The notes under the pieces were generated by a model. That model had not been told where the DNA came from and did no database searches. It saw only the letters and a program-made list of their open reading frames with translations. The translations under genes were made by a program, and so were the position numbers. DNA of 64,000 bases from Spirochaetota bacterium (GTDB lineage Bacteria > Spirochaetota > UBA4802 > JAFGJZ01): positions 811 through 64,810 of the forward strand of contig JAFGRW010000050.1 in NCBI GenBank assembly GCA_016934935.1, written 5' to 3'. Shown one piece after another: positions 2,821-34,230 of the stretch (the first letter of the stretch is position 1; every line of letters begins with the position of its first letter).

Positions 2821-3159
2821 ATGAAAATTGCAATACCTTGTGTAGAAGATACACTGTCCCTTCATTTTGGGCACTGTGCCTATTTCTCTTTTGTAACAGT
2901 GGATGACGCGACAAAGAAAATTACAGACGAAAAAAGAGAAGATGCTCCGCCTCATGAGCCGGGTCTTTTGCCGAAGTGGGTAAAAGATCGTGAAGCCGAT
3001 ATGGTAATTTGCGGAGGAATGGGACAGAGGGCACAGCAGTTGTTTATTTCACAGGGAATCAAAGTTATGGTTGGTGCTCCATCCGAAACACCGAAACAGA
3101 TTGTACAGTCATATCTTGACGGAACACTTGTAACAGGTGTAAACGGATGTGACCACTAG
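2821..3159 (+). CDS. NifX/NifB-C-terminal-like (FeMo-cofactor-binding family) small protein
   Basis: 112 aa starting MKIAIP....HFGHC.YF, typical of the family. SD aaggaga. From about codon 36 onward it is duplicated at 33681-33915. Confidence 0.8.
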   Translation: MKIAIPCVEDTLSLHFGHCAYFSFVTVDDATKKITDEKREDAPPHEPGLLPKWVKDREADMVICGGMGQRAQQLFISQGIKVMVGAPSETPKQIVQSYLDGTLVTGVNGCDH

Positions 3160-3256
3160 ATACTGCCGTGAATAACCTGAATTGCCTACCGTGGCTCAAT
3201 CCGCATGATAGAAAACATGCCGGTTGTTTTATTAAAGGTTTTTATAAAGAGTAGCG

Positions 3257-3460
3257 GTTTAAGAAGTTCCCCTGATAAAAAAAGCAGTCCGGTTTTGCCG
3301 GACTGTTATTATTATCTACACGACTTATCAAATGAGAGGCAACAAGAGAGAGGGCAGAATAGCTGGGCGGCTATTCTGCCCTCTCTGCATGTTTGGACGC
3401 GCAGTGCAGGGAACAGTAATGTCTATCGGGAGGGATATTACAGACTGTTCCCTTCAATTA
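3257..3460. repeat. Hairpin-rich conserved element of ~204 nt, copy 1 (candidate sRNA or recombination site)
   Basis: 8 mismatches and 1 indel versus 34028-34230, and only 1 mismatch in the last 120 nt. Hairpins at 3285-3305, at 3347-3386 (16-bp perfect stem) and at 3408-3453. Confidence 0.6.
3277..3315. terminator. Bidirectional rho-independent terminator hairpin
   Basis: A7-CAGTCCGG-ttttg-CCGGACTG-TTATTATTAT, which gives a T7 tract on the minus strand. It lies downstream of the NifX-like gene (+) and of the long minus-strand operon. Confidence 0.7.
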
Positions 3461-3596
3461 GGTAGAGGCTTTAAGAACTTTATCCAGAGGCTGGACTTTG
3501 TGTGACTCAGGTTGAAGATATTTTATCATTTATTATAAATTAAGGATTAAACAGGTCAGAAGTGAAATCTTCGCAGCTGAGAACTCTGTCCGTAAT

Positions 3597-6500
3597 TTAA
3601 AGATTTTCATAAGTCACAGTATGGTTGATCTTTAATCCAAATATCCGGATGATAACTAATCCGCATATTATAATAATCCCGTAAATCTGGAGTATCGGTA
3701 TCAATGCCGAATGTATATTTCCGGTTGCAAGCAGCGGATAGAGAACCGGAAGAACAGAAACAAGTGAAATAATAGCGGATATAAACAGTAGCCGTGAGTA
3801 GTGAATAAAGTGAACATGCTTTAGAGCCATCTGTGAAAATCCAAGAGAGCGCATCAGTATAATTCGCCTGCTATCATCGTTATTTCCGGAACGGATAAGA
3901 AGCGCAAGCCCGGCAAGTCCCAGCAAGAGAGCCAGAGTCGAAAGTGTCTGAAAAATTCGCAGATAGGTGTTTTGCAGATGCATAAACTCTCTGAGTGTTT
4001 CGGTACTTGGGCGCACATGGGCTCCCCAATCGTTAAAGAGTCTTTGCAGAAGCCGCCTCTCTTCGGCTGATCCTCCGGTACCTGCAAGAAATATACCCGC
4101 GCCGGATGGGCTGTTAAAATTGGAGTAAAGCAGCTTGTGATCCATATATATCCGTCCCTGAAGACAGGTGTCATTTGCCAGTGCTGTTAATACTACGCGC
4201 CGTTTTTTTCCGTCTTTACCCCGGTATATTAACGTGTTGTTCAGATTTTTTTTAAGCCCCCACTGAAGTACAGAGGCGTCTATTGCGGCCGGAATTGCTC
4301 CGTCGTCACGCAGGTTGGCAAGCGTCTTCCATTTAAGTTTTTTTCCGTCGCCGTCACTCAATGTAAAGATATCTTCAGCATCCATAAGTTTGGTGTCAAC
4401 TCCAAGGATGCCGGGTGTATCCAGGGCGTTTAAGTTCAGACAGTTAGCGCTCTCTTCACCAAAGACTGTAAAGGGAATCATTTTCTCTTCGCGATCAGGG
4501 ATTCTGTCGGCAGGAACAGGTATATTTGTGTTAATTATAAAGTGTTTGCCTCCGGTTGGAGAACTGCTCTGTTCTGGATCAAAGGTTATCACCAGTCTGT
4601 TAGCTGAAACAGCAGTAACAATAAAAAAAGATATTGTCAGTACAACTATTACAGCACGGTCGCGCGGTTCACGACAAAGAAAAGAGAGTGCCGCCGCTGT
4701 AGCAAGTGAGAGCAGAAGGAGAAGACCGGAAATAAAAAAAAGTGTACTTTGCAGGGATTGGTAGGTGAGTGCTGTAAAAAAGAGAATTGCCGCTGCAACA
4801 AAAAGTAATATGGATAATAAAAAGAGTATCCGGGTATTACGTTTAGAGACGGTGGGAACGGGCAGATTGATATCCCTCATGCTGAAGTTTATCAGCCGTT
4901 TTTTTATGACAATGGCCGAAAGCAGCAGCACCGGAACGCTTCCCGCTATAAAGGAGGCCGGAACGATCCATGGCGCTATAAAAAGATAGAGGGCATCCGT
5001 GTTGACTGCTCCGTACCAGATGCTTCTCAGTAATGAAAGCAGAATGCGCACAAGGAAGATCCCGAAAAGGCTCCCGGTAATGCTTGAAATTAATACCGGT
5101 AAAAGTATCTCCCGCGTGTAAAGTTTTCGCAGCTTTGTAACGCTGTATCCTGTTGTACGCAGCAGTCCGGCTTCACCTTTTCGCGCGTTAATAAACTGAA
5201 TGGCAAGAACAGCGTGAATAAAAAGCAGAGCTGCTATCAGAAAAAAACTCATAGAGAGAAAGAGCATGGCAAAGTCAACCGATCCGCGCGAAGCCTTAAC
5301 AAGCTCCTCTCGTATTGGTGTTACTGCTATTCCGGCGTCGTCAATCGAAACATGATTTGAAAATTCATTTCTGACCATTGCAGAAGTTATTGTCTTTTCA
5401 AAACGTATAAGAACCGGATCCGGCGATATTGTTTTCGCTGCCCCGGTGTTAAGTATGATATGAGGCCGTTTGCCGTGACGTTCCCAATCCTCTTCGATAG
5501 CCGGTGTTATTTGTGAAAAATCAATAGGTAACGAGCTATCCCAATCACGACAGCTTGCACCCTCATCAAGACCGGGAAAGTCAGGTATGTCGCTGCTTCG
5601 TTTAAGAAAGAGTGCTTCGTTACCGATAGAATCGATAATAACAGGATACTCTCCTATTGTCAGTTTCCCGTCGTCTTCGGAAAACTTGTAGTATTTCAGA
5701 ATTATGGTGTCACCGGGTTTGGCCCCTGTAGTTTGCGCGAGAAGCGGCGAAATTATATTCTGCTTATCCGGTGAAGAGACAAAGAAGAGATAAAATCTTG
5801 AGCCCGCTTTTGCCTCCGCGCTGTGCAGAAACGAAGCGTGAACGTGCTCAGAGTCAAGTGAAGATAGCGCCTTCTGTATGTATGATGGAATAAAATGGGC
5901 GTCGCTTGTTAACACAACGTGTTTGCTGTCATCTTCATGCAGTTTGAGCCCCGGATCTTCGAGTGACAGAATATCCGGCGGAAACTGGAACGATTCATTG
6001 TCTGATCGAATAAGGACTCTGTTAGCACGTCCGGGAATACGCGCGATTTGCCCAAGCTCATCCCTGTTTGCGAAAATTAATCGGGACGGTCGCTGTGTTA
6101 TCTCTGTTTGAAATGAGGCTATAGAGGATTCTTCCAGAATACGACTGACGGTAAACTCCCTGTCAGAATAGCCGTGAATACCACGGGCTGCAGGTTCTAC
6201 TATTTCACCAGTTGATATATGTGCAATTCTAAGCGTTAGCGGATCACCGGGCTTGACATCAAGATAGTCGGCTGCCATTTTGTTAAGCCATAGTTCACCC
6301 TCATCCGGGGAGTCACCGGGAGTTTTGTCGTCAGAAAAAAAAGAAAGAAAGTATGTGTCAATACCGGTTACCGAAAGTGGTGAGTCCGGGTTTTGAATAC
6401 CCGATGCCGATATCAGCGGCAGTTGCAGATATGCTGCTGCCTCTATATTGCTATCGCTGATGATACGCTTTTCAAGATCATTTATAAACGGTGTTTGCGA

Positions 6501-6686
6501 AATTATTAGATGAGTTGCCTTGCCGATTTTATTGAGGTTGTATGCCTTAATACTTTCGCGGACTGAGTGTCCCACCAGTAAATTGGCACAGATCAATGCC
6601 GAAGCAAGAAACCCGGCAATGCCAAGAAGAGTCAGGCGGTTTCTGTAATAGCGTCTTGAGGCTCTTGTAAAACGGGCTCTATCCAT
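3597..6686 (-). CDS. Large ABC permease with two FtsX-type TM modules and two large extracytoplasmic domains (MacB/LolCE-like)
   Basis: N-terminal TM, a soluble region of about 430 aa, a TM cluster, a second soluble region, then a C-terminal TM cluster. ATG 6686 overlaps the TGA of the upstream ATPase gene (TGATG); TTG 6689 is an alternative start. Confidence 0.75.
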   Translation of the reverse strand: MDRARFTRASRRYYRNRLTLLGIAGFLASALICANLLVGHSVRESIKAYNLNKIGKATHLIISQTPFINDLEKRIISDSNIEAAAYLQLPLISASGIQNPDSPLSVTGIDTYFLSFFSDDKTPGDSPDEGELWLNKMAADYLDVKPGDPLTLRIAHISTGEIVEPAARGIHGYSDREFTVSRILEESSIASFQTEITQRPSRLIFANRDELGQIARIPGRANRVLIRSDNESFQFPPDILSLEDPGLKLHEDDSKHVVLTSDAHFIPSYIQKALSSLDSEHVHASFLHSAEAKAGSRFYLFFVSSPDKQNIISPLLAQTTGAKPGDTIILKYYKFSEDDGKLTIGEYPVIIDSIGNEALFLKRSSDIPDFPGLDEGASCRDWDSSLPIDFSQITPAIEEDWERHGKRPHIILNTGAAKTISPDPVLIRFEKTITSAMVRNEFSNHVSIDDAGIAVTPIREELVKASRGSVDFAMLFLSMSFFLIAALLFIHAVLAIQFINARKGEAGLLRTTGYSVTKLRKLYTREILLPVLISSITGSLFGIFLVRILLSLLRSIWYGAVNTDALYLFIAPWIVPASFIAGSVPVLLLSAIVIKKRLINFSMRDINLPVPTVSKRNTRILFLLSILLFVAAAILFFTALTYQSLQSTLFFISGLLLLLSLATAAALSFLCREPRDRAVIVVLTISFFIVTAVSANRLVITFDPEQSSSPTGGKHFIINTNIPVPADRIPDREEKMIPFTVFGEESANCLNLNALDTPGILGVDTKLMDAEDIFTLSDGDGKKLKWKTLANLRDDGAIPAAIDASVLQWGLKKNLNNTLIYRGKDGKKRRVVLTALANDTCLQGRIYMDHKLLYSNFNSPSGAGIFLAGTGGSAEERRLLQRLFNDWGAHVRPSTETLREFMHLQNTYLRIFQTLSTLALLLGLAGLALLIRSGNNDDSRRIILMRSLGFSQMALKHVHFIHYSRLLFISAIISLVSVLPVLYPLLATGNIHSALIPILQIYGIIIICGLVIIRIFGLKINHTVTYENL

Positions 6687-8671
6687 CAACGAATCCTCCC
6701 GTCTAAAAGCTCTATGGTTCGATCCATAAGTGATGCCATCTCCTTCTCATGTGTCACCATCAAGAGAGAGCTTTTATGCTCCTTTGCCAGTTTTTTAAGC
6801 AGGTTAAGCACGGTTATACTGTTGTCGCTGTCAAGCGATCCCGTCGGTTCATCCGCGAGTATCAGTTTAGGCCGATTTATCAATGCCCGGGCGACGGCTG
6901 TGCGTTGCCGTTCTCCTGTTGAAAGCTCTCCGGGATAATGGGTAATCCTCGCGCTCAGGCCGACCTCGTCGATTAGTTCGTGCGCGCGTTCTTTTTGTTG
7001 CGCGTCTGGTTTTTTCATATCGGGAGCCATGGCCGGTAGCAGAACGTTTTCCATAAGGGTCAGTTGCGGTAGCAGAAGATGCTCCTGAAAAACAATGCCA
7101 AGCTCTGTTGCTCTGAAACGGTCACACTGTTCTGCTGTCCACGCGGCAGTATCGTCACGCAGAAAAGTTACTGATCCGTTGTCGGGGCGGTCGAGCAGGG
7201 CGCAGAGCATAAGCAGTGTTGTCTTGCCGCTGCCTGAGGGTCCGCAAAGGGCGACACATTCACCCTCGTCAATTTTGAATGAGACGCCTTTCAGCACATC
7301 AGCAAGTACAAGACCGTCCCTGTTTTTAAATGAACGATGCAGATCATTTATTTCAAGAACTCTCCGTCTTTTATTATGCAGCGGTTTTACAAGCGTAAGA
7401 AGTTTTTCTGCTGCTGTGTTATGCGAAAAATTTGTCCCGGCTCGTTTTCGAGCCGCCTCTGAAAGTTTTTGCGCGTAGGCCGGGTCACCAAGAAGTGTGT
7501 CGAGTGCGTCAGTCAGGGCAGAGACATTCTGCGGTGTATAGAGCAGTCCTGATCTGTCTGTATCCCCTATAATTTCACTAAAGGCTCCTATGTCCGGTTC
7601 CACAACGGGTATACCGCGTGCCATCGCTTCAAGAAGATAATATCCGAATGCTGTTGGCTCTTTTTGTGGAACGCATAGCAGTGTCATGCCCTCAAAAAAG
7701 GAGTCGCGCTGACTGCTGGTAATGTTTGGATACAGTTCGACCTCGCCGGTCGTTATGTGCGGAGCAAGAATCCTGCGAAGCCGGAGCACGTATGGGCGGT
7801 CATCACCGTTATAGCCTCCGCCGATACGCAGTCGAAGATTCTTGTACCTTTTTTTAAGTGTAAGCCACGCTTCAACAAGTTTATGCGGCGCGCCATCTTC
7901 GCATATACGTGAAAGATATCCTATTACCGGAGCATCACTTGTAACAGTTGCTGTTACCGGGCACGCCGGAACATCAATTGCCGGATATAAAACCGGAAGC
8001 TTCTCCTGTGCAAGCGGGAGCCTGTTCAGCATATAATCCCGATAATAGTTACTGACCGGTAAAAAAAGATCTACCATACGGGACTGGCTTTTTAATAGTT
8101 CCCAGGCCGTGTGTCTCCAGGGGGCGCGCATGCTGTCAAGCCAGGTATGCTCATCCTGTAAAAAGCAGACAAGCCGCGCGGCCGGATAGCGTTTTACCAG
8201 ATCAGAGCCAAGCCCGATAAGAAGCGCGTTTGAAAGAAGAATGGTGTCGGGAGAGTAGTTGTCCAGAAGGCCATGGAAATGCTCCTTCTCTTCCTGCTGC
8301 ATCAGCAGAGAGCCGCTCATCATCTGCAGCGTCATCTTTTCGAGTCCCCGCGATCGTGTACTTGCTGAAAGATGCGCGGCAATTTTAAGAAATGGGTGTG
8401 TATCAAGAATGCGGCTGATAAATGGCGCGTGTCTTCGCAGCCAGGGAATTTTGCTGCGAAGGCTCATCGAGACTGCTCCGCAAACAAGCAGCTCTTCACC
8501 TTCCAGGCGTTCGCCGTCATTAAAAAGAGGCATGTAGAGAGGAACGATCATTACCTGTGCTCCGGCATTTCGAAGCGCGCGGACGAGTGGTCTGTCGCGC
8601 AGGCAGTTTTCACAATAAAAGGCGCCGCCTGAACCGGGTATCAAATATACTATTTTTTGGTCTCTATTCAT
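6686..8671 (-). CDS. Fusion protein: N-terminal GT4/GT1-type glycosyltransferase plus C-terminal ABC ATP-binding domain (LolD/MacB-like)
   Basis: GT-B motif EPTAFGYYLLEAMARGIPVV. This is followed by Walker A GPSGSGKTTLL, signature LSTGERQR, Walker B LILADEPTGSLD and H-loop VTHE, all in a single 661-codon ORF. Confidence 0.8.
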   Translation of the reverse strand: MNRDQKIVYLIPGSGGAFYCENCLRDRPLVRALRNAGAQVMIVPLYMPLFNDGERLEGEELLVCGAVSMSLRSKIPWLRRHAPFISRILDTHPFLKIAAHLSASTRSRGLEKMTLQMMSGSLLMQQEEKEHFHGLLDNYSPDTILLSNALLIGLGSDLVKRYPAARLVCFLQDEHTWLDSMRAPWRHTAWELLKSQSRMVDLFLPVSNYYRDYMLNRLPLAQEKLPVLYPAIDVPACPVTATVTSDAPVIGYLSRICEDGAPHKLVEAWLTLKKRYKNLRLRIGGGYNGDDRPYVLRLRRILAPHITTGEVELYPNITSSQRDSFFEGMTLLCVPQKEPTAFGYYLLEAMARGIPVVEPDIGAFSEIIGDTDRSGLLYTPQNVSALTDALDTLLGDPAYAQKLSEAARKRAGTNFSHNTAAEKLLTLVKPLHNKRRRVLEINDLHRSFKNRDGLVLADVLKGVSFKIDEGECVALCGPSGSGKTTLLMLCALLDRPDNGSVTFLRDDTAAWTAEQCDRFRATELGIVFQEHLLLPQLTLMENVLLPAMAPDMKKPDAQQKERAHELIDEVGLSARITHYPGELSTGERQRTAVARALINRPKLILADEPTGSLDSDNSITVLNLLKKLAKEHKSSLLMVTHEKEMASLMDRTIELLDGRIR

Positions 8672-8695
8672 ATTTTCCTCTGTTTATGCCCTTAG

Positions 8696-9793
8696 CTATT
8701 TTTTAACAACTTCCAGAATATGAACACGACCAGCAGCGTTGCCAACGGCAATAAGGTTTTGGTGTATCGCGGCACCGAGCGAGGGCAGTGCACCAAGGTT
8801 GTACGATGCTATTTCGCGGCCGGTCTCTCGATCAATCAGCATAATTGCGCCCGAAGCGTTCGCGCTTATGATACCTTCGTCGATATTCACTGTTTCAAAG
8901 TCAATCGCGCTGCCGCTTTCAAAACGCCAATTCAATTTGCCGTCTTTTGCGTCAAAGGAGTAGATGCGTCCGCGTTGATCGGCGCTGATTACAGCTCCAT
9001 TTGTGTAAAGAACCGGCGCGCGGACCGGCGCGCTCATATCGGGTATAATGCTCCATCGGAAACCTTCACCGGGAACATATGCGCTTATATGTCCCTCATA
9101 GCCGGCGAAGTAGATTGTTCCTGTTTCGTCTGTTGCAGGAGTTGATGGAATATATGAACGCACAGTTGCCGAATCGATAAGCGTGCCGTCTGCACGTTTT
9201 AGTATGTAGAGCGTCGCGTCACACGATCCAAAGACTACTGTTTCGCCTATGATTACCGCTCGTCCGTTTATAAAGCTCTTTGGTGAAAAGGTCCAGATTG
9301 TTTCAAGACTGTGCCGGTCTATTTTAAAAAATTTGTTTTCGTAATTACCGGCATAGATTGCCTGCTTGCCGGGATCCATTGTAAGGCCGCCCTGTATCTG
9401 TCCAAGACCAGCTCTCTCTTTTAAAAGTGAGCCGTCCATTGCGTTTATCGCGAGAAGTACACCTTCGAGTGAGGCAATGTACAGTGTCTCGCCAACAAGC
9501 AGCATTGATGCCTCGAAGGATAGCTCGCGCGAGTATTGCCACACTTTTTTTGCGTCGGGGAAAGTGAACGCTGTAATCTCTCCCTCTCCGGTGGCGACAA
9601 AAAGATATGTTAAGTCGCCTGCTTTTTTTATAAGCGGCGGAGCTGTTACCGATGAAGAGAGTTTTACACTGTTGCGCAGTCGAATCACCGTTTTTTTTTC
9701 GCTCTCATTTTGACGGCTGCATGCAGTTGTAATTAATATCATCAGTAAAAAAACAATTATGCATGGATGACAATTTATTTGTTTTCTACTCAT
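8696..9793 (-). CDS. PQQ-like/BamB-like beta-propeller repeat lipoprotein (P1)
   Basis: Signal peptide with lipobox-like ITTAC. Repeated blade pattern (G.LY....DG.L.A.....G...W). 8-nt overlap with the upstream gene. Confidence 0.7.
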   Translation of the reverse strand: MSRKQINCHPCIIVFLLMILITTACSRQNESEKKTVIRLRNSVKLSSSVTAPPLIKKAGDLTYLFVATGEGEITAFTFPDAKKVWQYSRELSFEASMLLVGETLYIASLEGVLLAINAMDGSLLKERAGLGQIQGGLTMDPGKQAIYAGNYENKFFKIDRHSLETIWTFSPKSFINGRAVIIGETVVFGSCDATLYILKRADGTLIDSATVRSYIPSTPATDETGTIYFAGYEGHISAYVPGEGFRWSIIPDMSAPVRAPVLYTNGAVISADQRGRIYSFDAKDGKLNWRFESGSAIDFETVNIDEGIISANASGAIMLIDRETGREIASYNLGALPSLGAAIHQNLIAVGNAAGRVHILEVVKK

Positions 9794-11192
9794 CTATCTT
9801 TTCTCCATAATCTTTACAGCGAAGTGCTCCGATTGGGCAGACTTGCGCGATCCTGTGAGCAGTTTTTACAGGGGCAGGTAAATTATAATCAAAGAGAAGA
9901 CGGGTGTCAATCCCCCGGTTTTCGAATGAGAGAGGGTAGGGTTCTGATAATTTTTGAGCGGTGTTTATACAGAGCCCGCAGCGCATGCATTTAGCCGGTT
10001 CGTATTCGAGAGCACCGCATATAACAAGCTCAAGATCCCGTTTATGATTTAGTCGCGGTATTGTTGCTGTTTTTATCTTATGATCTTCGGCCGCCTTTTT
10101 TAAAAGACAGGTTTCTGATTTCCAGCAAGTGCAGTCAAGACAGAGTTTGCCGCCGGCAACAGATTCGGTTTTGTGTGCATTTCTCTTCAGCCGGTTTTGC
10201 AGGAGTGTCTCAATTTCGGGAACGCTGCATTTTCCTAAACGCGAGGGCGAACTCTTCTGTCTCAGATGCGGTGTTACCCCTTTTGCGTGAGCTATAACTT
10301 TCGCGGCCTCTTCACGTCCATGATAAAAGGCACGGGCGACAGCCATTTGCGCGGAGATCAAACCTGTATTGATTAATATATCGAAGTCTTGTGTTAAGGG
10401 GTCATCGGTTGCAATATCACGCGTTATCAGTGAGGCGTCTGCCGCTTTTACAAGATTGTCAATTTCAGCAGCTATAACGGGCTTTTCGTCTATGCCGGCT
10501 TTCAGCATACCGGCGTATCCCTGCGAATCGGCAAGTGTGACAGCATATCCATTGCAGGCCGCGTACCACACAGCGGCGATGCCGGCTGGGCCGCCGCCAA
10601 TAATCAATGCCTTCTTTTTATTTGCGTTATCCGCAGTATTATTTTTCAGTACAGGAGGATAGTTTGCGGCAAGAAAATCCTTAACCGGACGTATGCTCAC
10701 CGGTATGCCGTCTTCCTCTTCTGCCCTGCGGCAACTTTTTTCGCATGGCCCCGGACAGAACATATTGCTGGCTCGCGGAAGCGGGATGGCACTGTAGAGA
10801 AGTTGAGCCGCTTCCTCGTATTTTTGGTCTTCGACCAGGCGAACCATTTTATCTGTTTCAAGATGAGCGGGGCAGACAAGCGCACAGGGTGCTGTACAGT
10901 CACCTGCGTGTTCGGCAAGAAGCATTGTTAATGATTGCGTTCTCATATCTTTGACAGCATGTGTGTTTGTATTAAGGCTCATGCCATGGCTGACTTGTGT
11001 CTCGCAGGCCGGCAGAAGCTTCCCGGATTTTGTATCCTCAACAAGACAAAGAAGGCAGGACGCGCGATGATCTCCCATCCCCCGGCACAGCGACGGAATA
11101 TAAATATCGTACCGGTTGCAGACTTCAAGAACAGTCTCTGACTTGCCTGCGGCAAGAGCTTTACCATCAATCGTTATCGTGCATGCTGACAT
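9786..11192 (-). CDS. Fe-S flavoprotein: NuoG/HydA-N-terminal-like 2Fe-2S domain, GltD-like FAD domain and C-terminal 4Fe-4S motifs
   Basis: The N-terminus ITIDGK...C..C...C resembles the Fer2_4 type. AEHAGDCTAPC. CPGPCEKSC. Dinucleotide fold LIIGGGPAGIAA. C-terminal CMRCGLC and CPIGAL. SD gaaggag. Confidence 0.7.
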   Translation of the reverse strand: MSACTITIDGKALAAGKSETVLEVCNRYDIYIPSLCRGMGDHRASCLLCLVEDTKSGKLLPACETQVSHGMSLNTNTHAVKDMRTQSLTMLLAEHAGDCTAPCALVCPAHLETDKMVRLVEDQKYEEAAQLLYSAIPLPRASNMFCPGPCEKSCRRAEEEDGIPVSIRPVKDFLAANYPPVLKNNTADNANKKKALIIGGGPAGIAAVWYAACNGYAVTLADSQGYAGMLKAGIDEKPVIAAEIDNLVKAADASLITRDIATDDPLTQDFDILINTGLISAQMAVARAFYHGREEAAKVIAHAKGVTPHLRQKSSPSRLGKCSVPEIETLLQNRLKRNAHKTESVAGGKLCLDCTCWKSETCLLKKAAEDHKIKTATIPRLNHKRDLELVICGALEYEPAKCMRCGLCINTAQKLSEPYPLSFENRGIDTRLLFDYNLPAPVKTAHRIAQVCPIGALRCKDYGEKIDE

Positions 11193-26084: not shown

Positions 26085-27678
26085 ACAGGTTGTCTTTTGT
26101 GATACAAATGTCATGCTCCATGTGCCATCTTTGGCAGATGACAGAAAAAGCATACGTGATTCTGCCGCGAGTTTTGCGCGTGAACAAAAAATTATCGCGC
26201 CTCTTCCGGCAGTCCATCTTTCACTTCTTGCGGATTCATTTTTGCGGGCCTATATGTTTGATGAGTCATATCGCGCATACTCTATGCTTGCTCTGGCCAA
26301 TGAAGTATGGCGCCCTGTCGTTGCTTCTGTTCCCTATGAGCGCCGTATACTGATACTGCCTGAGTGCCTTAAAAGTTCAACATCATGCCAAGCCGCGCGT
26401 GACTCAATGGGGCTTGTTTGCGCGGGTTGCATGAAATGTCAGATCGGAGAGATCTATGAAAAGGCAGAGGGCTGCGGATATCAGGTTATAGTTTCTGAAG
26501 GGACTACAGTTGCGCGGCAGATAGTTTTACAAGGAGGCGCGGATGCTATTATCGGTGTAGGCTGTTTGGATTCGCTGAGCCGAATATTTGAAGATGTGCA
26601 AGGCAGTTTAATACCCTCAATTGGTATTCCTCTTCTTCGTGACGGTTGTATGGATACTGCTGTTGATATGGGCTGGCTTGAGGAGGAGTTGCTGGTACAA
26701 ACTGAAGCTGAGAGCATTCTTCATTATGCTTATGTTAAAAGAAGCACTGAGGCGATGTTTACTAAAACGGTACTTGGGATGCATGCTCAAAATTCATATA
26801 ATTCAGATAAAACTGTTAATATTGCCCTCGAATACCTTTTGCTCGATGGAAAAAGAATCCGGCCTATGCTTTTTAATCTTGTTTATGAGTCTCTTTGCGA
26901 TGAGCATAATAAAAAGGCACAGCAAAAGCTAGCTCTATCGATTGAATCTTTCCATAAAGCATCACTGATCCATGATGATATTGAGGATGATGACGATACC
27001 CGTTATGGAGTAAAAAATCTGCATCGCCGATATGGAGTACCGGCCGCGATTAATATCGGTGATTACCTTATCGGATTAGGGTACAGTCTGATCTCTGGCT
27101 GTGGACTAACAGAAAAAAAAATAGCTGATTGTCTTAAAATAGCATCGCGTGGGCATGTCGATCTGACAATTGGTCAGGGGCATGAACTCTTTTCGCGATT
27201 AACAGATGATATTGTACCGCTTGCGGATCTGATAACCCGTTTCAAGAACAAGACCTCCGCTGCGTTTCGTATTCCTCTTCTTATGGGGGCGGCTGCGGCT
27301 GGGGCTCCAAAGCCTCTGTTTGCTATTCTCGAACAGTTTGCCGATTCGCTTGGTATAGCATATCAGATTCACGATGATCTGCATGACTACTCTGTGGGGC
27401 AATCCGGTTTCCTGGTTAGTGATTCTTCGTTTCTTTTCGCGCTGGCGATTGAGGATGCTACTGAAAAAGAAAAAGATAGCGTTCGCGAATACTTAATAGA
27501 AAAGGATTACGATAAGATTATTAAGTTTATCGGACAGGGGATGGTAGTCGAACAAGCCAAATCCCTGCTCAAAGAAGAGTTAAACAAGGCTCTAACGCTC
27601 GTAGGTACGATTCAAAATAAGAGTATCCATCTTACACTTCGTCAGCTTGTTATCGGTTATTTTAATGAGTATCTGTGA
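26077..27678 (+). CDS. Fusion: Cys-rich DUF116-like N-domain plus trans-polyprenyl diphosphate synthase
   Basis: LILPECL..STSC...GLVCAGCMKCQIGE...GVGCLD resembles DUF116 (recalled, not verified). LIHDDIEDDDDTRYG (first Asp-rich motif) and YQIHDDLHDY (second). Start ATG 26077 overlaps the upstream stop (ATGGATAA). The track start at 25969 is rejected. Confidence 0.75.
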   Translation: MDKQVVFCDTNVMLHVPSLADDRKSIRDSAASFAREQKIIAPLPAVHLSLLADSFLRAYMFDESYRAYSMLALANEVWRPVVASVPYERRILILPECLKSSTSCQAARDSMGLVCAGCMKCQIGEIYEKAEGCGYQVIVSEGTTVARQIVLQGGADAIIGVGCLDSLSRIFEDVQGSLIPSIGIPLLRDGCMDTAVDMGWLEEELLVQTEAESILHYAYVKRSTEAMFTKTVLGMHAQNSYNSDKTVNIALEYLLLDGKRIRPMLFNLVYESLCDEHNKKAQQKLALSIESFHKASLIHDDIEDDDDTRYGVKNLHRRYGVPAAINIGDYLIGLGYSLISGCGLTEKKIADCLKIASRGHVDLTIGQGHELFSRLTDDIVPLADLITRFKNKTSAAFRIPLLMGAAAAGAPKPLFAILEQFADSLGIAYQIHDDLHDYSVGQSGFLVSDSSFLFALAIEDATEKEKDSVREYLIEKDYDKIIKFIGQGMVVEQAKSLLKEELNKALTLVGTIQNKSIHLTLRQLVIGYFNEYL

Positions 27679-28561
27679 TTATGCACGTTTTCTGAGGATC
27701 ATGTGGAGCGTCCCCTCGATAAAAGCTGTTCTAAAAAAAGGCTATCGGCAAATTTCATTGCAGGATCAAGAGAAGATCAGAGATTATTTGCAACAGTCTC
27801 AATGCTCAACAGGTGGCTTCACAGATCGTAATGGACGTGAAGATATATACTATACTTTTTTCGGAACAATAATCGCGGACTCTCTATCCATTCGCTATGA
27901 TTACAGCTCTGTCGCTAAATATATAGGTCACTACTCTGTGGATCAAGAGACTTCCCTTGCGGATATGATATCTTACGCGGCTCTTTTATATAAACATACA
28001 GGCAATAAAAAAAGAGCTTTATCAATTCTCAGCAAAATTGACACTGTAACAACCAAAAAAAAGATTGTCGAGCCTGTCTATGCTGACATCATGATGACTC
28101 TTGCCTGTTTGCAATGCCGCTTATACTTCCGAGCAGCTCACATCCTTAAATCTCAAGCCGAACAGATGTTTTGTGAAACTGCCGCTATGACACCTCTTGT
28201 TGCCGCAAGAGTTACAATGATTAGTATATATTTAAAGAAGGCTGGTCTGTTTAAAAAAAAAGAAAGTGCTGTGACGGAGTTAAAGCGTCATGCGGAATCC
28301 TGTGTGGATGTATTGATTAACCGGGTGTCCGACGTAGGTGGTTTTAAAGCATCTGCTAAAGTTATCGTGCCTGATCTTCTATCTACTGCGGTTTCACTGT
28401 ATGCACTAAAATGTTATGATTATGATCTGCGTGCCATTGCTCCATCAATGCTTGATTTTATTACTTCTGTATATTGTGACGGTAGCTTTGCCCCTTCGGA
28501 ATATGAGGCAGGAGATGTTGAGTATCTCTTTTATGGTCTTCTTGCTCTCGGCTCATTATAG
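27665..28561 (+). CDS. Prenyltransferase/terpene-cyclase alpha-alpha-toroid repeat protein (~300 aa)
   Basis: Repeats of the type QQSQCSTGGFTD, VSDVGGFKAS and YCDGSFAPS. ATG 27665 overlaps the upstream 3' end by 14 nt; TTG 27647 is an alternative start. Confidence 0.6.
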   Translation: MSICDYARFLRIMWSVPSIKAVLKKGYRQISLQDQEKIRDYLQQSQCSTGGFTDRNGREDIYYTFFGTIIADSLSIRYDYSSVAKYIGHYSVDQETSLADMISYAALLYKHTGNKKRALSILSKIDTVTTKKKIVEPVYADIMMTLACLQCRLYFRAAHILKSQAEQMFCETAAMTPLVAARVTMISIYLKKAGLFKKKESAVTELKRHAESCVDVLINRVSDVGGFKASAKVIVPDLLSTAVSLYALKCYDYDLRAIAPSMLDFITSVYCDGSFAPSEYEAGDVEYLFYGLLALGSL

Positions 28562-28652
28562 TGCTTGGTTAAGCAAATTATTTTCAACAGAAAACTTTAA
28601 AAACGCATAACTTTAACAATAGCATAGTTGTTATATTAACAGGATACAGAAT

Positions 28653-30473
28653 ATGAATAACGTCAGACAGATATACAAAGAGTGTGCCTCCTCTTTGGTG
28701 CAAAAGAGAGAGGGTGATCTTTGGAAGGGGCGTCTCTCTTCGAGTGCACTTGCCGTATCCGTTGCCATTACGGCTTTCGCGATGTATGACAGTAATTTGC
28801 TAAAACAACAGATTAAAGATGGTGTACGCTGGCTTATTGCCACACAGAATGGGGACGGTGGTTATGGTGACTCGCCACAAAGCATCAGCAATATTAGTAC
28901 AACTCTTTTATGCTACGCTGCCTTAACAATCTGCGATGATCAGAAAGAGTCAAGAGTCGCACGCGGTCGGATCTGCTTATATCTGTATAGACAAGATATT
29001 GATATGAAGAGAGATTTTGTAGAACGTTCGGTTCTTGACCATTACGGCAGGGATCTAACATTCTCGGTTCCAATATTGACTATGCTTGCGATCTGTGGTG
29101 TGATTGATGATTTTGAAAAAATTCCTCAGTTGCCCTTCGAGTTTTCCCTTCTGCCAAGATCTCTATTCCGTTTTTTCAATCTTCAAGTGGTTAGTTACGC
29201 GATACCGGCATTGATAGCTGTTGGAATTGTTTGCCTAAAAAAGAAGAGAAAATCTAATCCATTTCTTCGTTTTATAAGATACAGGCTGGTAAAAAAAGCT
29301 TTATGTCGACTGCAATCGTTGATGCCGCAAAGTGGAGGCTTTCTGGAGGCTGTTCCGTTAACCGGTTTTGTCTCCCTCAGTCTGCTTGCGGCAGGTGTTC
29401 GCAATCAAACAGTTGAAAGAGGAATTTCGTTTTTAAAAAAAATACAGCGGAGTGACGGATCATTTCCTATAGACACGGATCTTTCACTCTGGGTCACAAC
29501 ACTTTCTATTAAAGCATTAAATGATAATCTGAATACCAGTTGCGGTCAAGAGGCCATTGAGCGGCTTCGGAATATACTTTTAAATAGTCAGTATCGACAG
29601 GTTCATCCGTTTAACGGAGCAAAGCCCGGTGGCTGGGGATGGACTACCTTTAGCGGCGCTGTTCCGGATGCCGATGACACCTCCGGTGCAATACTTGCAC
29701 TGGCTATTTTATCTGACGGATCTGCAGAAGTTAAGCGCTCTATTAAACTCGGATGTGACTGGTTAATCTCGCTTCAGAACAGGGACGGTGGTGTACCTAC
29801 ATTCTGCAAGGGGTGGGGTCGTCTTCCATTTGACAAGAGTTGTGCCGACCTTACTGCTCACGCCTGTGCTGCAATTATTAGAAGCAGGTATTACCTTAAT
29901 GGGGTGATAACCAATAATACAGCGCGTTGTTACGGCCGTTTTATTAATCGCGCTCTTGGCTATCTTGAAAAAAACCAGTCTTCAACTGGAGCGCTATTGC
30001 CTCTATGGTTTGGAAATCAAGATCATCCCGAACATAAAAATCCTGTCTATGGTAGCGCAAAGATCTCTGTATATCTGCGGGACTCTTTGCAGTTTGTTTG
30101 TGAAGATAGTCAAGAGTATAGGCGGATTTATAAACTTGCAGATAAAGCCTGTCGTTATCTTGAGTCATGCCAGAACGAGGACGGTGGTTGGGGTGCTGCC
30201 TCTGGTATAAAGTCGACTTTGGAAGAGAGCGCATTATCTGTATCGGCATTAACATCTTTTAACCGGGACAGAGCGGTGCGTGGTGTTGATTACCTTCTCA
30301 GCGCAATTAAAATTAATGGAATTACCGCGTCACCAATTGGTCTCTATTTCGCTTCACTCTGGTATGATGAGGAGCTTTACCCTCATGTTTTCCTAACAGA
30401 GGCGCTGGGGCGTTATATCCGAACTGCGGATAATGGCTGCACTGAAAATTTGGATAAGCTTGAAAAAATGTAA
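28653..30473 (+). CDS. Class II terpene cyclase (squalene-hopene cyclase family, DxDD type)
   Basis: GGWGWTTFSGAVPDADDTSG (compare SHC GWAF....PDVDDTA). QW-like motifs TQNGDGGYG, IQRSDGSF, LQNRDGGVP and CQNEDGGWG. Confidence 0.8.
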   Translation: MNNVRQIYKECASSLVQKREGDLWKGRLSSSALAVSVAITAFAMYDSNLLKQQIKDGVRWLIATQNGDGGYGDSPQSISNISTTLLCYAALTICDDQKESRVARGRICLYLYRQDIDMKRDFVERSVLDHYGRDLTFSVPILTMLAICGVIDDFEKIPQLPFEFSLLPRSLFRFFNLQVVSYAIPALIAVGIVCLKKKRKSNPFLRFIRYRLVKKALCRLQSLMPQSGGFLEAVPLTGFVSLSLLAAGVRNQTVERGISFLKKIQRSDGSFPIDTDLSLWVTTLSIKALNDNLNTSCGQEAIERLRNILLNSQYRQVHPFNGAKPGGWGWTTFSGAVPDADDTSGAILALAILSDGSAEVKRSIKLGCDWLISLQNRDGGVPTFCKGWGRLPFDKSCADLTAHACAAIIRSRYYLNGVITNNTARCYGRFINRALGYLEKNQSSTGALLPLWFGNQDHPEHKNPVYGSAKISVYLRDSLQFVCEDSQEYRRIYKLADKACRYLESCQNEDGGWGAASGIKSTLEESALSVSALTSFNRDRAVRGVDYLLSAIKINGITASPIGLYFASLWYDEELYPHVFLTEALGRYIRTADNGCTENLDKLEKM

Positions 30474-30582
30474 TAAGTGTTCGCTAGAATTATTAAATAA
30501 TATCCACAAGTATAGTATTTTACTATTCCTGTAATAGTAGTGGTTTTATAATAATTAAAATTAATATAAAGAGGAGATGTAA

Positions 30583-31848
30583 ATGATGAACAAATTTAAT
30601 TGGTGTAAGAATATGTTTTTACAGGCAGTTGTGATAATTTCATTGCTACTGTTATGTGCGTGTTCGAAACCTATTGATCAGCAAGAGGGGTGGACCAAAT
30701 GGCGAGGACCTTCAGGCGATGGAACCATACGTGATGAAGCTTTTAATCCTTCGTTTATTAATAACAAAGACAATATCAAATGGCGGACGACGGTCGGTTC
30801 CGGATATTCTGGATTGTGTGTATCCAATAATCGCGTCTATACCATGGGTAAAAAAAATGATTCTGGTGCATTTATCGATGTAGTCTATTGTATCGACAGT
30901 AAAAATGGGAAAATTGTCTGGACTTACGAGTATACATTGATGAGAGAATATCCGTACGCAGGTCCTCGTGCAATGCCGGTTGTAGATGGTGATCGACTTT
31001 TTACCTTAAGTGCTGATGGCGATTTGACTGCTCTTGATGTCCATAGTGGAGAAAAAATATGGGACAGAAATATTCCCTATTCAGAGAATCTTCCGATTAG
31101 TATTTATGGTATTACAGGATCACCGGTTATCGAGAAAGGTGTTATTTACCTTAATATCGGGGGTGGAATTGCTCTTAATGCGGATACCGGTAAGACAATC
31201 TGGAAAGGAAAATTTGCTCCAACCGGTTATGCGACGCCTGTGCTGCTGGATTATAAAGGAACGCGGGCTGTGATGTTTTTTACGGGTAATATGCTTCGAT
31301 TGTTGAATGCTGCTGATGGAAAAATTATTGCAAGTAGCGACTGGATAAATGAACAGGGTATTAACGCGGCGGATCCTCTTATTGTTGAAGATGGAAATGT
31401 GCTGGTTTCTACTTCATACAGAAGTGATGGTTCCGGCATGTATGATTTTTCATCAGGCTCCTTTGAGGAAAAATGGGTGAGATCGGGTATCAGCACCCAC
31501 TTCAGCAGCCTGATTAAGCACGATGAACTCGTTTACGGTATACATGGTGATACAAATGCTCGGGGTCGATGTGAGTTTACCTGCCTTGATCCATTGTCAG
31601 GAGAGGTTGTTTGGAGCAGTCGCACATCGCTTTATGGCTCACTTATTAAGGTTAATAATACCATTATATATTTGAATGAAAATGGACAGCTTTATACTGT
31701 TGAACCTTCCCGAGAAGGATTCAAAGTAAGCTCCTCGCTTAACGCTCTTTATGGTAGAGCTAATTCATGGGTAGCGCCTTCGTACTGGAAAGGACATCTT
31801 TATTTACGATCTAATTCCGGTGAAGTTGTTTGCGTAAAAGCGATTTGA
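30583..31848 (+). CDS. PQQ-like beta-propeller lipoprotein (P6; paralogue of P3 and P5)
   Basis: Signal peptide with LLCAC lipobox. The same motif set as P3 (GWTKWRGP, YAGPRAMPVV, VIYLNIGGG, INAADP, STHFSSLIKH, LYLRSNSGEVVC). SD gaggag. Confidence 0.8.
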   Translation: MMNKFNWCKNMFLQAVVIISLLLLCACSKPIDQQEGWTKWRGPSGDGTIRDEAFNPSFINNKDNIKWRTTVGSGYSGLCVSNNRVYTMGKKNDSGAFIDVVYCIDSKNGKIVWTYEYTLMREYPYAGPRAMPVVDGDRLFTLSADGDLTALDVHSGEKIWDRNIPYSENLPISIYGITGSPVIEKGVIYLNIGGGIALNADTGKTIWKGKFAPTGYATPVLLDYKGTRAVMFFTGNMLRLLNAADGKIIASSDWINEQGINAADPLIVEDGNVLVSTSYRSDGSGMYDFSSGSFEEKWVRSGISTHFSSLIKHDELVYGIHGDTNARGRCEFTCLDPLSGEVVWSSRTSLYGSLIKVNNTIIYLNENGQLYTVEPSREGFKVSSSLNALYGRANSWVAPSYWKGHLYLRSNSGEVVCVKAI

Positions 31849-31906
31849 TGTTCGTATCACGAAGTTTATAGTTTGTCTAGCGAAGCTGTTAAACCCGATC
31901 TCTTGA

Positions 31907-32179
31907 AAGAAAAGACACACTCCTGATCAGGAGGGAAAAGGTCCGATCGCCAAGAGCTGGTCGTCCAGCATCACTTTCAAAAAGCAAAGTGGTGCTGGAT
32001 TGCATATCTCATATGCGGGGAATCAATCCCGTTCGCACCGCCTGTTAGAAGACTTAATGCATAAAAGCTTCTCCACTACTTCTGATTGCTTATTGTGGGC
32101 CGATCACCAATATAATGTCACAGTAGAAGATTATAACGAGTTTGCAGGCCAACACTATGAAACAATATATAAGTATTGA
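31907..32179 (+). pseudogene. Possible gene remnant: 90-codon open frame with no usable start
   Basis: Hand translation ...GPIAKSWSSSITFKKQSGAGLHISYAGNQ...WADHQYNVTVEDYNEFAGQHYETIYKY-stop. The only starts are TTG at 32000 and ATG at 32057. I do not recognise the family. Confidence 0.25.
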
Positions 32180-32214
32180 TAATTCTCGAGTTAATCAGGT
32201 TTTCCTGATACAAA

Positions 32215-33378
32215 TCATGATGCTATGGATGACTTTCTTTTTTTATTTTTAAACTGGGAAGGTGTCATACCTGTATGTTTTTTAAAAACACTGTTAAATG
32301 TTGACTTGCTGTTAAATCCGGACTCGTACACAACCTCAATTATGTTTTTTTTCTCTTCAGGATCGGAAGAGAGTAACCGTTTACTCTCTTCAATTCGGTA
32401 ACTATTGACATAATCATAAAAATTAATTTTTAGGAAGCTATTTAACACCTGTGATATCCGGTGAGAAGGGATTTTTGTCATATCAGACAATGTTTGTACA
32501 GTCAACTCTGGTACAAGAAAAGGTTTTTCATGTAACATGTATTCGTTTAGTATTTTCAAATATGCACTTCTCTCTTTTTCATTAAGAGGATTTTTTTTAT
32601 ATTTGCCAACATGCTCTAGTTTTGCAGGTAGAATTATTTCGCGTTGTGAAAACGCCCACAAAAAAAGTATTGTCAGAATAATAAGAAGAACGACTGATGA
32701 AAGTATATAGGCATATGGATAATAACCTTTAAAAGATTCCCGGTATACAATGATAGCTACTATTTCAAAAACACCCCACAAACCTATTGCAATCAGAAAG
32801 AAATGCAACCATCTAAGACTAATGCTGGAAACTGAAGAGAAAATATCAATAATATTTTTTCTATGGCAATAAAGGCTGTGTGAAGTAAAAATAAGATAGG
32901 CGTAAATCTGGATAACCCTAAGTATACGTATGTTTTGATATTCAAATACAGAAAAAAGACTATGATTGTAGGTGCTCATAATTATCGTATTAGCCGGTCC
33001 TTTAGAAATATACTCAACAAAAATATACAGAAGCACAACTGCAAAAGGTAACAGATGAATTAAATGCCGGGAAGAGAGGCGAAAATTATTATTGGCAATA
33101 GACTTTGTATAAAAATATAAAAAAGGAAATGAGAGAAAGCTCAGAGGTGTTGTAAAAAAGAAAAAGGGAGGAGCAGGGTGATAAGCTTTAAATTGATCTG
33201 TTGGAACAGAGTGATTTAAGAATCCACCCACCTCACCACACACTATAAAAAAGAAAAAGAAGAAAAGATAACGATTTGACCGGTTTCTATTAAAAGGCAA
33301 CATACAAAGAAAAATCATGAACAGCAGTGATTGAAAGGTGGTTAGAAGATGAATATTTTGTTTTATTGAATAGAGCAT
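32215..33378 (-). CDS. AraC-family regulator with multi-TM N-terminal domain (A2; inverted paralogue of A1)
   Basis: Same length (387 aa) as A1 and roughly 70 percent identical by eye. The HTH region is nearly identical (ESGFNSKSTFNSVFKKHTGMTPS). Confidence 0.85.
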   Translation of the reverse strand: MLYSIKQNIHLLTTFQSLLFMIFLCMLPFNRNRSNRYLFFFFFFIVCGEVGGFLNHSVPTDQFKAYHPAPPFFFFTTPLSFLSFPFLYFYTKSIANNNFRLSSRHLIHLLPFAVVLLYIFVEYISKGPANTIIMSTYNHSLFSVFEYQNIRILRVIQIYAYLIFTSHSLYCHRKNIIDIFSSVSSISLRWLHFFLIAIGLWGVFEIVAIIVYRESFKGYYPYAYILSSVVLLIILTILFLWAFSQREIILPAKLEHVGKYKKNPLNEKERSAYLKILNEYMLHEKPFLVPELTVQTLSDMTKIPSHRISQVLNSFLKINFYDYVNSYRIEESKRLLSSDPEEKKNIIEVVYESGFNSKSTFNSVFKKHTGMTPSQFKNKKRKSSIAS

Positions 33379-33680
33379 CTTGTCCTCTAAATTGGTTTTA
33401 ATGTAGATAAACTATACTATATGGTAAAATAATCTTTAATATTTTGAAGATGATAATTCCAATAACCTTGAAAATGCCAGAGATTTTTTAGAAAAGTTAT
33501 GAATTTCCGAAAAACATTACTTGTGTTTGGTAATATATTTCTTTGCAAATAGTATCTGTTCTGTTAATAGACAGTCTGTTCGAGGTTCAATCGCTATTGT
33601 TGTATTATTATTTAATAAATAATTAACTGTGAATACAAGTAAGAAGTATAACTCTTTTAAATAAGGGATTATAAAAAAGG

Positions 33681-33915
33681 AGACGAAAAAAGAGAGGAAG
33701 CTCCTCCACACGAACCGGGTCTTTTGCCGAAGTGGGTAAAAGAGCGAGAAGCCGATATGGTAATTTGCGGAGGAATGGGACAAAGGGCTCAGCAGCTTTT
33801 TGTTTCACAAGGGATAGAGGTTTTGGTGGGTGCTCCTTCTGAAACACCGGAAAAAATTGTGCAGTCATATCTTGATGGAACACTTGTAACAGGTGCTAAC
33901 GGATGTGACCACTAG
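33681..33915 (+). pseudogene. 5'-truncated NifX-like gene fragment (right repeat copy)
   Basis: Encodes (D)EKREEAPPHEPGLLPKW...GANGCDH, which is 68/76 aa identical to the end of 2821-3159. It lacks about the first 36 codons and has no ATG; the only candidate start is internal TTG 33724. Confidence 0.8.
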
Positions 33916-34027
33916 GTACCATTGTGAATAGAAGAAAGTTATTTATGCTTCACTGGACATAAAATTGAGTATGTGATTATATTTGTATCGCAGGCCTGTA
34001 TTGCTGTTACATTTAATAATTACTGCA

Positions 34028-34230
34028 GTTTAAGAAGTTCCTCTAATAAAAAAGCAGTCCGGTTTTGCCGGACTGTTATTATTATCTACACGACTTTTCA
34101 AATAATGGGTAACAAGAGAGAGGGCAGAATAGCTGGGCGGCTATTCTGCCTTCTCTGCATGTTTGGACGCGCAGTGCAGGGAACAGTAATGTCTATCGGG
34201 AGGGATATTACAGACTGTTCCCTTCAATTA
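34028..34230. repeat. Hairpin-rich conserved element of ~203 nt, copy 2
   Basis: Same three hairpins as copy 1 (34055-34075, 34117-34156, 34178-34223). The single stem substitution in hairpin 2 gives G-U on the plus strand. Confidence 0.6.
34048..34085. terminator. Bidirectional terminator hairpin (copy 2)
   Basis: A6-CAGTCCGG-ttttg-CCGGACTG-TTATTATTAT. Confidence 0.55.

Follow-up and report, generated by a model that had tools for sequence, protein, structure and literature searches.

A 30.8-kb accessory island between a NifX-like gene and rsgA in a Spirochaetota genome: possible insertion at codon 36 with the target gene rebuilt

The stretch of DNA analyzed here, which we call the window, comprises 64,000 nt (64 kb) of contig JAFGRW010000050.1 from a Spirochaetota bacterium. 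Near its left end lies an intact 112-codon NifX/NifB-like (Nitro_FeMo-Co) gene (positions 2821–3159, plus strand; PF02579, E = 2.8e-21), whose product is 99% identical in amino acid sequence to protein P0001 of contig L004, a relative in which this gene is followed directly by rsgA. The 30.8-kb block that separates the NifX-like gene from rsgA in the window is an accessory island. An earlier note on this DNA had described the flanks as core genes, and they are: three MinD/ParA-type Fe-S ATPases are encoded on the left, and on the right (34478–39419, plus strand) are found rsgA, genes for an ABC ATPase and a PilZ protein, an ilvE-like gene, and proS, an order shared with L004, L005, and L022–L025. 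Beyond proS come a tRNA-Ala gene, adhE, rex, and more housekeeping genes.

The island is bracketed by two direct repeats. The repeat pair seen in the earlier note proved to be real and co-linear in a repeat search, with ends corrected to 3463 and 34233. The left copy (2925–3463, 539 nt, plus strand) holds codons 36–112 of the NifX-like gene and 304 nt of downstream DNA, with codons 1–35 lying outside the repeat; it can be divided into the coding part, a spacer (spacer_L, 3160–3277), and a downstream element (3278–3463). The right copy (33681–34233, 553 nt, plus strand) consists of a truncated NifX-like 3' fragment (in frame 33682–33915), a spacer of its own (spacer_R), and the element. With the right copy as query against the left, BLASTN gives E = 2.8e-156, and 30.2 kb of cargo lies between the two. 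The repeat search returned two blocks: an ungapped one at 86% identity (2925–3174 versus 33681–33930, offset 30,756 nt) and one at 96% identity over 186 nt (3278–3463 versus 34048–34233, offset 30,770 nt). Between these blocks, 103 nt on the left and 117 nt on the right are unalignable (about 54% identity), in agreement with the stretch of about 100 unalignable nucleotides and the near-identical tail reported before. The copies open with the same 15 nt, AGACGAAAAAAGAGA (2925–2939, twin 33681–33695, plus strand), and the longest exact runs that they share, 40 and 97 nt, are both inside the last 186 nt. A terminator-like hairpin 3' of the NifX-like gene (3283–3307, plus strand) has its twin at 34053–34077; the right-hand hairpin was found by a terminator scan, and the left-hand coordinates are those given by the 30,770-nt offset.

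Over 234 nt and 78 codons of coding sequence, the two copies show 29 nucleotide and 8 amino acid differences, as had been counted exactly by hand. The changes fall in 17 synonymous and 8 non-synonymous codons, with a synonymous divergence (dS) of 0.54, a non-synonymous divergence (dN) of 0.05, and a dN/dS of 0.10. By this substitution pattern, the two copies are diverged alleles, each of which evolved under purifying selection as a working gene, as the earlier note had proposed. A recent in-place duplication is ruled out by the dS of 0.54 and the unalignable spacers. With 88.5% identity to each of the other sequences compared, the coding allele of the right copy, here termed the X allele, was found nowhere outside the right copy in the sequences searched. 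The right copy begins abruptly at the equivalent of codon 36, has no canonical start before an internal TTG at 33724, and is annotated in one database entry as an 84-aa protein starting from a non-canonical ATA codon. It abuts, at the abrupt junction 33680/33681, the AT-rich right end of the island (33379–33680), which lies upstream of a divergently transcribed AraC-family gene (AraC-2); the picture of a copy with no 5' part, starting at about codon 36 beside an unrelated promoter region, is thus confirmed. Two copies of the repeat are present within the 64-kb window. The 25-nt core of the downstream element occurs at two loci in the genome_contigs collection, which holds one genome per GTDB species (those of the related lineage 8 and of the distant Spirochaetota genome GH29), and in one metagenome contig (lineage 8), as a single copy in each; it has no match among viral contigs. 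The proposed check for extra copies therefore came out as a repeat that is not multi-copy, and we rejected a repetitive extragenic palindrome (REP) or miniature inverted-repeat transposable element (MITE)-like sequence on these counts.

An empty site, which the earlier note had suggested seeking in relatives, was found in three related lineages: lineage 8, L004 (a European Nucleotide Archive contig), and GH29, a metagenome-assembled genome (MAG). In each the NifX-like gene is followed directly by rsgA and then by the ABC, PilZ, ilvE, and proS genes. Contig look-ups by exact protein were made via neighboring proteins, not via the NifX-like protein or the 1030-aa FtsX-type permease of the island. 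In L004, rsgA begins 545 nt past the NifX-like gene. Lineage 8 was seen as six contigs from five sample accessions that are 99.99–100% identical over shared spans, so its empty site is not an assembly accident. Contigs from the samples of lineage 8 are 95.1 ± 2.3% identical to the window over 43.5–64 kb (20 kb), which makes lineage 8 the sister of the window at about the species boundary. The GH29 contig (L005) keeps the empty-site synteny, and its NifX-like protein is 79% identical to that of the window. L004 is a single contig at 2.4x coverage. We considered that it could be a chimeric low-coverage contig. Almost all 200-nt blocks of the window, however, are near exactly one of L004 and lineage 8, a pattern that points to the window as the recombinant, and L004, though a single contig, is more likely a real haplotype.

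The affinities of the two repeat copies were followed block by block against L004 and lineage 8, which are 82% identical to each other at the NifX–rsgA locus. The coding part, spacer_L, and element of the left copy are 99% identical to L004, and spacer_L is unalignable with spacer_R. In the right copy, spacer_R is 90% identical to lineage 8 and 54% identical to L004, and the element is 100% identical to lineage 8 and 96% identical to L004; in the flank just beyond (34281–34680), the values are 92–96% to lineage 8 and 71–91% to L004. Because the affinity of spacer_R and the element runs unbroken into the proximal right flank, the right copy looks resident, contiguous with rsgA. The left copy belongs to a different haplotype family, here termed alpha, and we infer that it traveled with the island. 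Neither copy changes type between 2940, the first site that is informative, and its last 70 nt. Position 3396 of the left copy is a C, with T in every other sequence. A second MAG and Logan contigs reproduce the window at 100% identity, and so it is a real recombinant between two haplotype families. On these comparisons, the NifX–rsgA locus is a recombination hot zone, as against the uniform 95 ± 2% identity to lineage 8 at 43.5–64 kb. The right flank from rsgA to ilvE (34480–37480) is made up of 200–600-nt blocks that are near either L004 (95–98%) or lineage 8 (93–98%) and 70–86% identical to the other, L004 and lineage 8 being 73–88% identical to each other in this interval.

The intact NifX-like gene of lineage 8 is a three-part chimera. 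Its codons 1–34 differ from the alpha allele of the left copy at 14 of 102 nt. Between 2923–2940 and 3120 (about codons 36–105), X and alpha differ at 27 sites, and the lineage 8 gene has the alpha base at 25 of them. The right-copy type takes over at codon 107 and continues into spacer_R and the element. The alpha patch starts at most 15 nt from the left edge of the repeat (2925) and ends where the spacers become unalignable. This patch is probably the excision scar of a unit, made up of the alpha 3' end and the island, that had been at codon 36 of a resident gene and was lost by recombination between the two copies, or else the result of conversion by that unit. Since the DNA left of codon 36 in such a unit is non-homologous, the alpha sequence must stop at codon 36 in either case, by deletion or by conversion. 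The chance that an unrelated tract would end at the boundary in lineage 8 is roughly 0.5% over the aligned flank and about 5% within the gene.

Within the downstream element lies an ultraconserved, structured stretch of 115 nt (3339–3453, plus strand; twin 34111–34225; L005 10541–10655). It is 97% identical to its counterpart in GH29, whose flanking genes are only 66–77% identical. RNA folding gives a perfect 19-bp hairpin with an 11-6-11 palindrome as its core and a second hairpin (z = −6.8). The two GH29 substitutions would be non-synonymous in the sole overlapping open reading frame (ORF), which places the constraint at the RNA or DNA level. No Rfam family matches the 115-nt element at gathering thresholds, and only noise appears at E values up to 10. 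Integrative mobile elements exploiting Xer recombination (IMEX), such as the CTX phage and the gonococcal genetic island, integrate at dif by means of host recombinases. Like them, the island has no integrase of its own, and its direct repeats contain an 11-6-11 palindrome, GGCAGAATAGC-TGGGCG-GCTATTCTGCC. Unlike in IMEX, the palindrome is not at a replication terminus, and the exchange point that we propose below would be 420 nt away, at codon 36. The palindrome is single-copy and conserved beside the NifX-like gene in relatives, and, to its left as to its right, plus-strand genes have a GC skew of about +0.2 and minus-strand genes one of about 0. A dif/IMEX reading of the palindrome was rejected because the replication component of the skew keeps its sign across the window. 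The NifX–rsgA spacer of GH29 (L005 10700–10900) also holds about three tandem copies of a unit of about 30 nt (GATATTGGGGACGGAGGTTG...), which are absent in the window and in lineage 8.

No integrase, transposase, relaxase, or phage domain was found in any ORF of the island or of the 64-kb window, a lack that had been noticed before from the letters and is upheld here by domain scans. When every ORF of at least 80 aa in the island and its flanks was scanned with Pfam and NCBIfam, domains of integrases, recombinases, or excisionases did not appear, and the intergenic gaps, at most 513 nt, are too short to hide a recombinase-type gene. The same scans found no domains of a relaxase, coupling protein, or type IV secretion system, the hallmarks of integrative and conjugative or mobilizable elements. 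By BLASTN, neither half of the island has DNA similarity to any of 72,556 plasmids, and a plasmid origin was rejected on that basis. The hallmarks of a composite transposon or insertion sequence are also missing from the island, which has no transposase and no terminal inverted repeats; its ends are the direct repeats of 539 and 553 nt. A tRNA-targeted island was rejected because the sole tRNA gene (Ala-GGC, 39540–39614) is 5 kb off and is not repeated.

The cargo falls into two modules. Module A (3464–22600, genes 3597–22342, minus strand; annotated with Pfam and NCBIfam) is one operon. It encodes the 1030-aa FtsX-type permease, a GT4 glycosyltransferase fused to a LolD/MacB-type ABC ATPase, a NuoE–NuoF fusion, a NapH-like membrane polyferredoxin, a 2Fe-2S/GltD-like protein, a radical SAM protein, a ferredoxin, and six BamB/PQQ-like β-propellers. 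Module B (22855–33378), bracketed by two inverted AraC-family paralogues, encodes a ferredoxin, a radical SAM/SPASM protein, a DUF116–polyprenyl synthase fusion, one β-propeller, and two terpene-cyclase-like proteins, one prenyltransferase-like and one squalene-hopene-cyclase-like. G+C content is 47.0% in module A, 39.8% in module B (22601–33680), 41.7% in the left flank, and 37.2% in the right flank, and G+C at third codon positions (GC3) is 0.42–0.49 in module A, 0.28–0.39 in module B, and 0.27–0.40 in both flanks. The composition step that the earlier note had sensed therefore stands for the minus-strand operon and not for module B, which is host-like in G+C. The tetranucleotide correlation of module B to the flanks is 0.77–0.80, and that between the two halves of the right flank is 0.90. 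Within the 47% G+C operon, a BioB/PylB-like radical SAM gene (17730–18824) is host-like (39% G+C, GC3 of 0.31), which suggests a secondary insertion or replacement within module A. The island itself is therefore mosaic.

Relatives of the cargo are few. From about 5.8 billion proteins, the 8000 candidates sharing most words with the FtsX-type permease were scored, and only three homologues of at least 39% amino acid identity (39, 48, and 51%) were among them. The core of module A is syntenic at 48–51% amino acid identity in L014, L015, and L017, outside the context seen here, in the shared order propeller, NapH-like protein, propeller, NuoEF, 2Fe-2S protein, propeller, ABC, and FtsX; the neighboring genes of the two closest permease homologues were read and differ from those here. 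From its deviant G+C content and its relatives at about 50% amino acid identity elsewhere, the cargo appears foreign to this locus, and appears to be rare and to have moved before. No cargo protein reaches an NCBIfam curated cut-off, such that none is a named equivalog, and a literature search for such a cluster found no relevant paper.

Starting from the observed repeat, empty sites, composition step, haplotype affinities, and lineage 8 chimera, the account that we favor, tentatively and at somewhat less than an even chance, is that a unit spanning 2925–33680 was inserted into the resident gene at codon 36 and rebuilt that gene, as in the e14-icd design. The transferable unit would consist of a spare NifX-like 3' end (codon 36 to stop), a spacer with the conserved element, and the 30.2 kb of cargo. 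It would have entered by one reciprocal exchange of a circular form, or by an equivalent break-repair event, within the 15 identical nucleotides AGACGAAAAAAGAGA. Because the alleles first differ at 2940, where both copies already show their respective types, the exchange would have been confined to this 15-nt stretch, and it looks site-specific or illegitimate rather than homologous. The element-borne 3' end would have been fused in frame to the resident 5' end, keeping the gene intact, and the resident 3' end would have been displaced 30.8 kb downstream, to persist beside rsgA, in truncated form, as the right copy. The unit could be removed again if the two repeat copies recombined. A recombinase may have been lost, leaving the island anchored, or may have acted in trans; it is also possible that the catalyst was of neither kind and that the import was illegitimate and facilitated by homology.

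This design has a close parallel in e14 and phage 21 at icd in Escherichia coli. As summarized in a passage on Hill et al. 1989 (PMC6379469), e14 provides icd with its 3' end, and a 163-bp pseudo-icd stays behind as the duplicated region. In both cases, if the favored account holds here, the insertion is within a protein-coding gene, the element brings a replacement 3' end with mostly conservative changes so that the target gene remains intact, and the resident 3' end is shifted to the far end as a pseudo-fragment, giving direct repeats. The differences are that the e14 integrase gene adjoins the att site, whereas the island here is without a recombinase gene; that the duplicated segment here is longer (539–553 nt) and reaches 304 nt beyond the stop codon; and that the cargo here is metabolic rather than phage. 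A second parallel is found in type VI secretion system (T6SS) and Rhs arrays of Vibrio cholerae, where orphan 3' fragments are attributed to homology-facilitated illegitimate recombination, in the part of PMC5361080 that cites de Vries and Wackernagel 2002 and Prudhomme et al. 2002. Those events would share with the present one the acquisition of DNA without element-encoded mobility genes, a conserved upstream gene as the homology anchor, and a resident 3' part that was moved downstream instead of being replaced. They differ in that the modules moved, in the cases treated in that part of the source, are of 1–3 kb as opposed to 30 kb here, and in that the codon-36 boundary recurs here in a second lineage, which would not be expected of a random illegitimate join. 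F-prime plasmids and specialized transducing phages capture flanking chromosomal DNA and then integrate in Campbell fashion. Like these, the mobile DNA here would bear a chromosomal piece matching the insertion locus, with 99% identity to the allele of L004; unlike these, it has no replication, transfer, or phage genes, and the crossover would not be where RecA is expected to act. The general kind of event, a gene-end-replacing insertion that leaves long direct repeats, is already known, and what is unusual is the absence of a recombinase together with three empty sites and a probable scar.

Several observations weigh against insertion at codon 36. The alpha haplotype of the left copy continues to the left of codon 36 in the window, at 99% identity to L004 back to 2249, and at least 4.3 kb of the left flank has an identity of 75–90% (about 86%) to lineage 8, as far as 809 nt or more before the window begins. 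With alpha sequence to the left of codon 36, the favored model needs an extra recombination tract, such as an alpha tract placed over the left flank after insertion and ending in the alpha-type left copy. The catalyst that defines the e14 type is absent, as neither the unit nor the 64-kb window holds a recombinase gene. The putative element-borne copy is 99% identical to the chromosomal L004 allele, as one would expect after recent capture from a chromosome more than of an attP arm with a long history of its own. The circle junction is not among the sequences seen, the short-k Logan contigs stopping inside the repeat, and all of the sequences compared are metagenome assemblies. Finally, the coincidence in lineage 8 rests on one boundary.

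These points bear differently on the other ways in which the locus could have arisen. One is a one-ended homologous import, by homology-facilitated illegitimate recombination or break repair, from an alpha-lineage donor that carried the island directly after the conserved element: on a long fragment holding the left flank, the NifX-like gene, the element, and the island, exchange would have been homologous on the left, the free right end would have been joined illegitimately to codon 36 of the recipient, and the duplication would be a by-product. We consider this possible but somewhat unlikely. It would account for a window whose background is lineage-8-like (95% over 20 kb) and whose left flank is nevertheless only 75–90% identical to that lineage over at least 4.3 kb and 99% identical to L004 wherever L004 is available, and the patchwork of L004-like and lineage-8-like blocks in the first 3.5 kb of the right flank would be expected from the resolution of a long donor molecule in several tracts. 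It requires no recombinase, and none is present, and it has a precedent in the displaced 3' fragments of the Vibrio T6SS and Rhs loci, as these are treated in the part of PMC5361080 cited above. However, the patch in lineage 8 that starts at codon 36 would go unexplained, with two independent events required in the same 15 nt, and no alpha-lineage genome with the island is known, the sole alpha contig, L004, being empty. The earlier note had instead proposed a Campbell-type single crossover with a circular element. Its geometry holds up, in that the repeats fit a single reciprocal exchange with a circle; what fits less well is a classical RecA-dependent crossover through the 540-nt homology, in which a circle with an X-type 3' segment, spacer_R, the element, and the cargo would have entered an alpha-type chromosome. 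RecA would be expected to cross over in the long identical runs of the element, and a switch in the 40- or 97-nt runs of the last 186 nt does reproduce the window, with the C at 3396 compatible with a switch near the palindrome. The right copy would then be foreign, yet in its spacer and element it is of one haplotype with lineage 8 and with the supposedly native flank beside it, so a second breakpoint would by coincidence be needed exactly at the island edge, and the lineage 8 chimera would again be unexplained. We regard this version as distinctly unlikely.

Two further explanations were weighed. In one, the island at this site is an assembly artefact, the cargo and one repeat copy having been threaded in via the shared element from a separate circle or another strain. 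All of the data are metagenome assemblies, the link across 3021–3431, from the left copy into the island, is found only in the window's own contig, and the Logan contigs break inside the repeat. Against this, a contig from a separate MAG (L001) extends from 33512, in island DNA, across the right copy to rsgA, the junction 33680/33681 is present in the independent assemblies L001 and L010, and every other junction is reproduced by Logan contigs at 100% identity. These contigs cover the left flank to 3021, 3431–12377, 26215–33777, and 34201–39570; the third interval is the part read of a 21,429-nt contig, whose other end would be near 12349 by its size. The longest exact repeat, 97 nt, is shorter than a read, and each junction has copy-specific single-nucleotide polymorphisms at a distance of about 130 nt or less. 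A mis-join is therefore unlikely, and we hold the artefact to be very improbable. In the other explanation, the island is ancestral at the locus and was repeatedly lost in relatives, nothing having been inserted recently. The lineage 8 chimera is the expected remnant of a deletion between the two copies, which makes at least one loss plausible, but the outgroup GH29 and L004 are both without the island, the operon is deviant in composition, the closest relatives of the cargo are only about 50% identical and are in unrelated contexts, and the two copies come from different haplotype families. We give an ancestral island hardly any credence.

If a unit was inserted at codon 36 as we favor, the locus would be a natural example of a 30-kb metabolic block that enters and leaves a chromosome without mobility genes of its own while its target gene is kept intact. 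For comparison there are, besides the occupied site, three empty ones and what is probably an excision scar, and a scar allele of this kind in an island-free genome can disclose a past insertion. It is conceivable, though we think it quite unlikely, that the unit is a genuinely mobile element without a recombinase, moved in trans by a chromosomal recombinase that recognizes the 15-nt site or the 115-nt element. Were this so, it would represent a new class of host-dependent integrative element, one that delivers a so-far undescribed periplasmic redox, β-propeller, and isoprenoid system. Regardless of how the island arrived, two uncharacterized features are brought to attention: the rare operon for redox proteins, β-propellers, and an ABC exporter, with its polyprenyl/cyclase module, and the 115-nt non-coding element.

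From domain content alone, the cargo appears to specify a redox chain from cytoplasm to periplasm that serves secreted β-propellers, together with a Lol/MacB-type exporter. The NuoEF-like and GltD-like proteins would draw electrons from NAD(P)H, and the NapH-like polyferredoxin would carry them across the membrane. The many β-propellers of the signal-peptide type would work outside the cytoplasm, and the Lol/MacB-type pump, to which the glycosyltransferase is fused, would serve to export or anchor a product that is glycosylated or lipidated. Synthesis and cyclization of a polyprenyl compound would be the task of module B, under AraC-type control.

Some details of the modules may be added. The two AraC paralogues (22855–24018, plus strand, and 32215–33378, minus strand) are of 387 aa, have membrane-spanning N-terminal halves, and form an inverted repeat of 774 nt at 74% identity; the 8.2-kb isoprenoid/radical SAM module fits exactly between them, as would a cassette acquired on its own. 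In module A, the ABC ATPase (6686–8671) has 661 aa with its N-terminal GT4 domain, and its counterparts in L014, L015, and L017 stand alone at 235–236 aa. In L017 (MAG GCA_023396665.1, 13091–23066), the homologue of module A is followed by genes for a WYL-domain regulator, an AAA/STAND-like ATPase, toxin-antitoxin systems of the BrnT/BrnA and CopG types, and the reverse transcriptase of a group II intron, a neighborhood rich in mobile or defense genes. At the 5' end of the first β-propeller gene of module A is a perfect 30-nt direct repeat (22286–22315 and 22347–22376, up to 22489; 61 nt apart) that encodes EASPHASGWT in two places: a short upstream ORF, whose start is signal-peptide-like, ends with it, and the main ORF opens with it. 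The leader of this gene thus seems to have been split from its body by a frame-shifting insertion.

Outside the island, the window also differs from lineage 8 between rtcB and rex. Compared with lineage 8 (L019 21007–21682), the window lacks about 500 nt at 42964–43460, including a gene for a 210-aa RF-1-domain (ArfB-like) protein, and the site without this gene carries a 14-nt tandem repeat (42978–43022).

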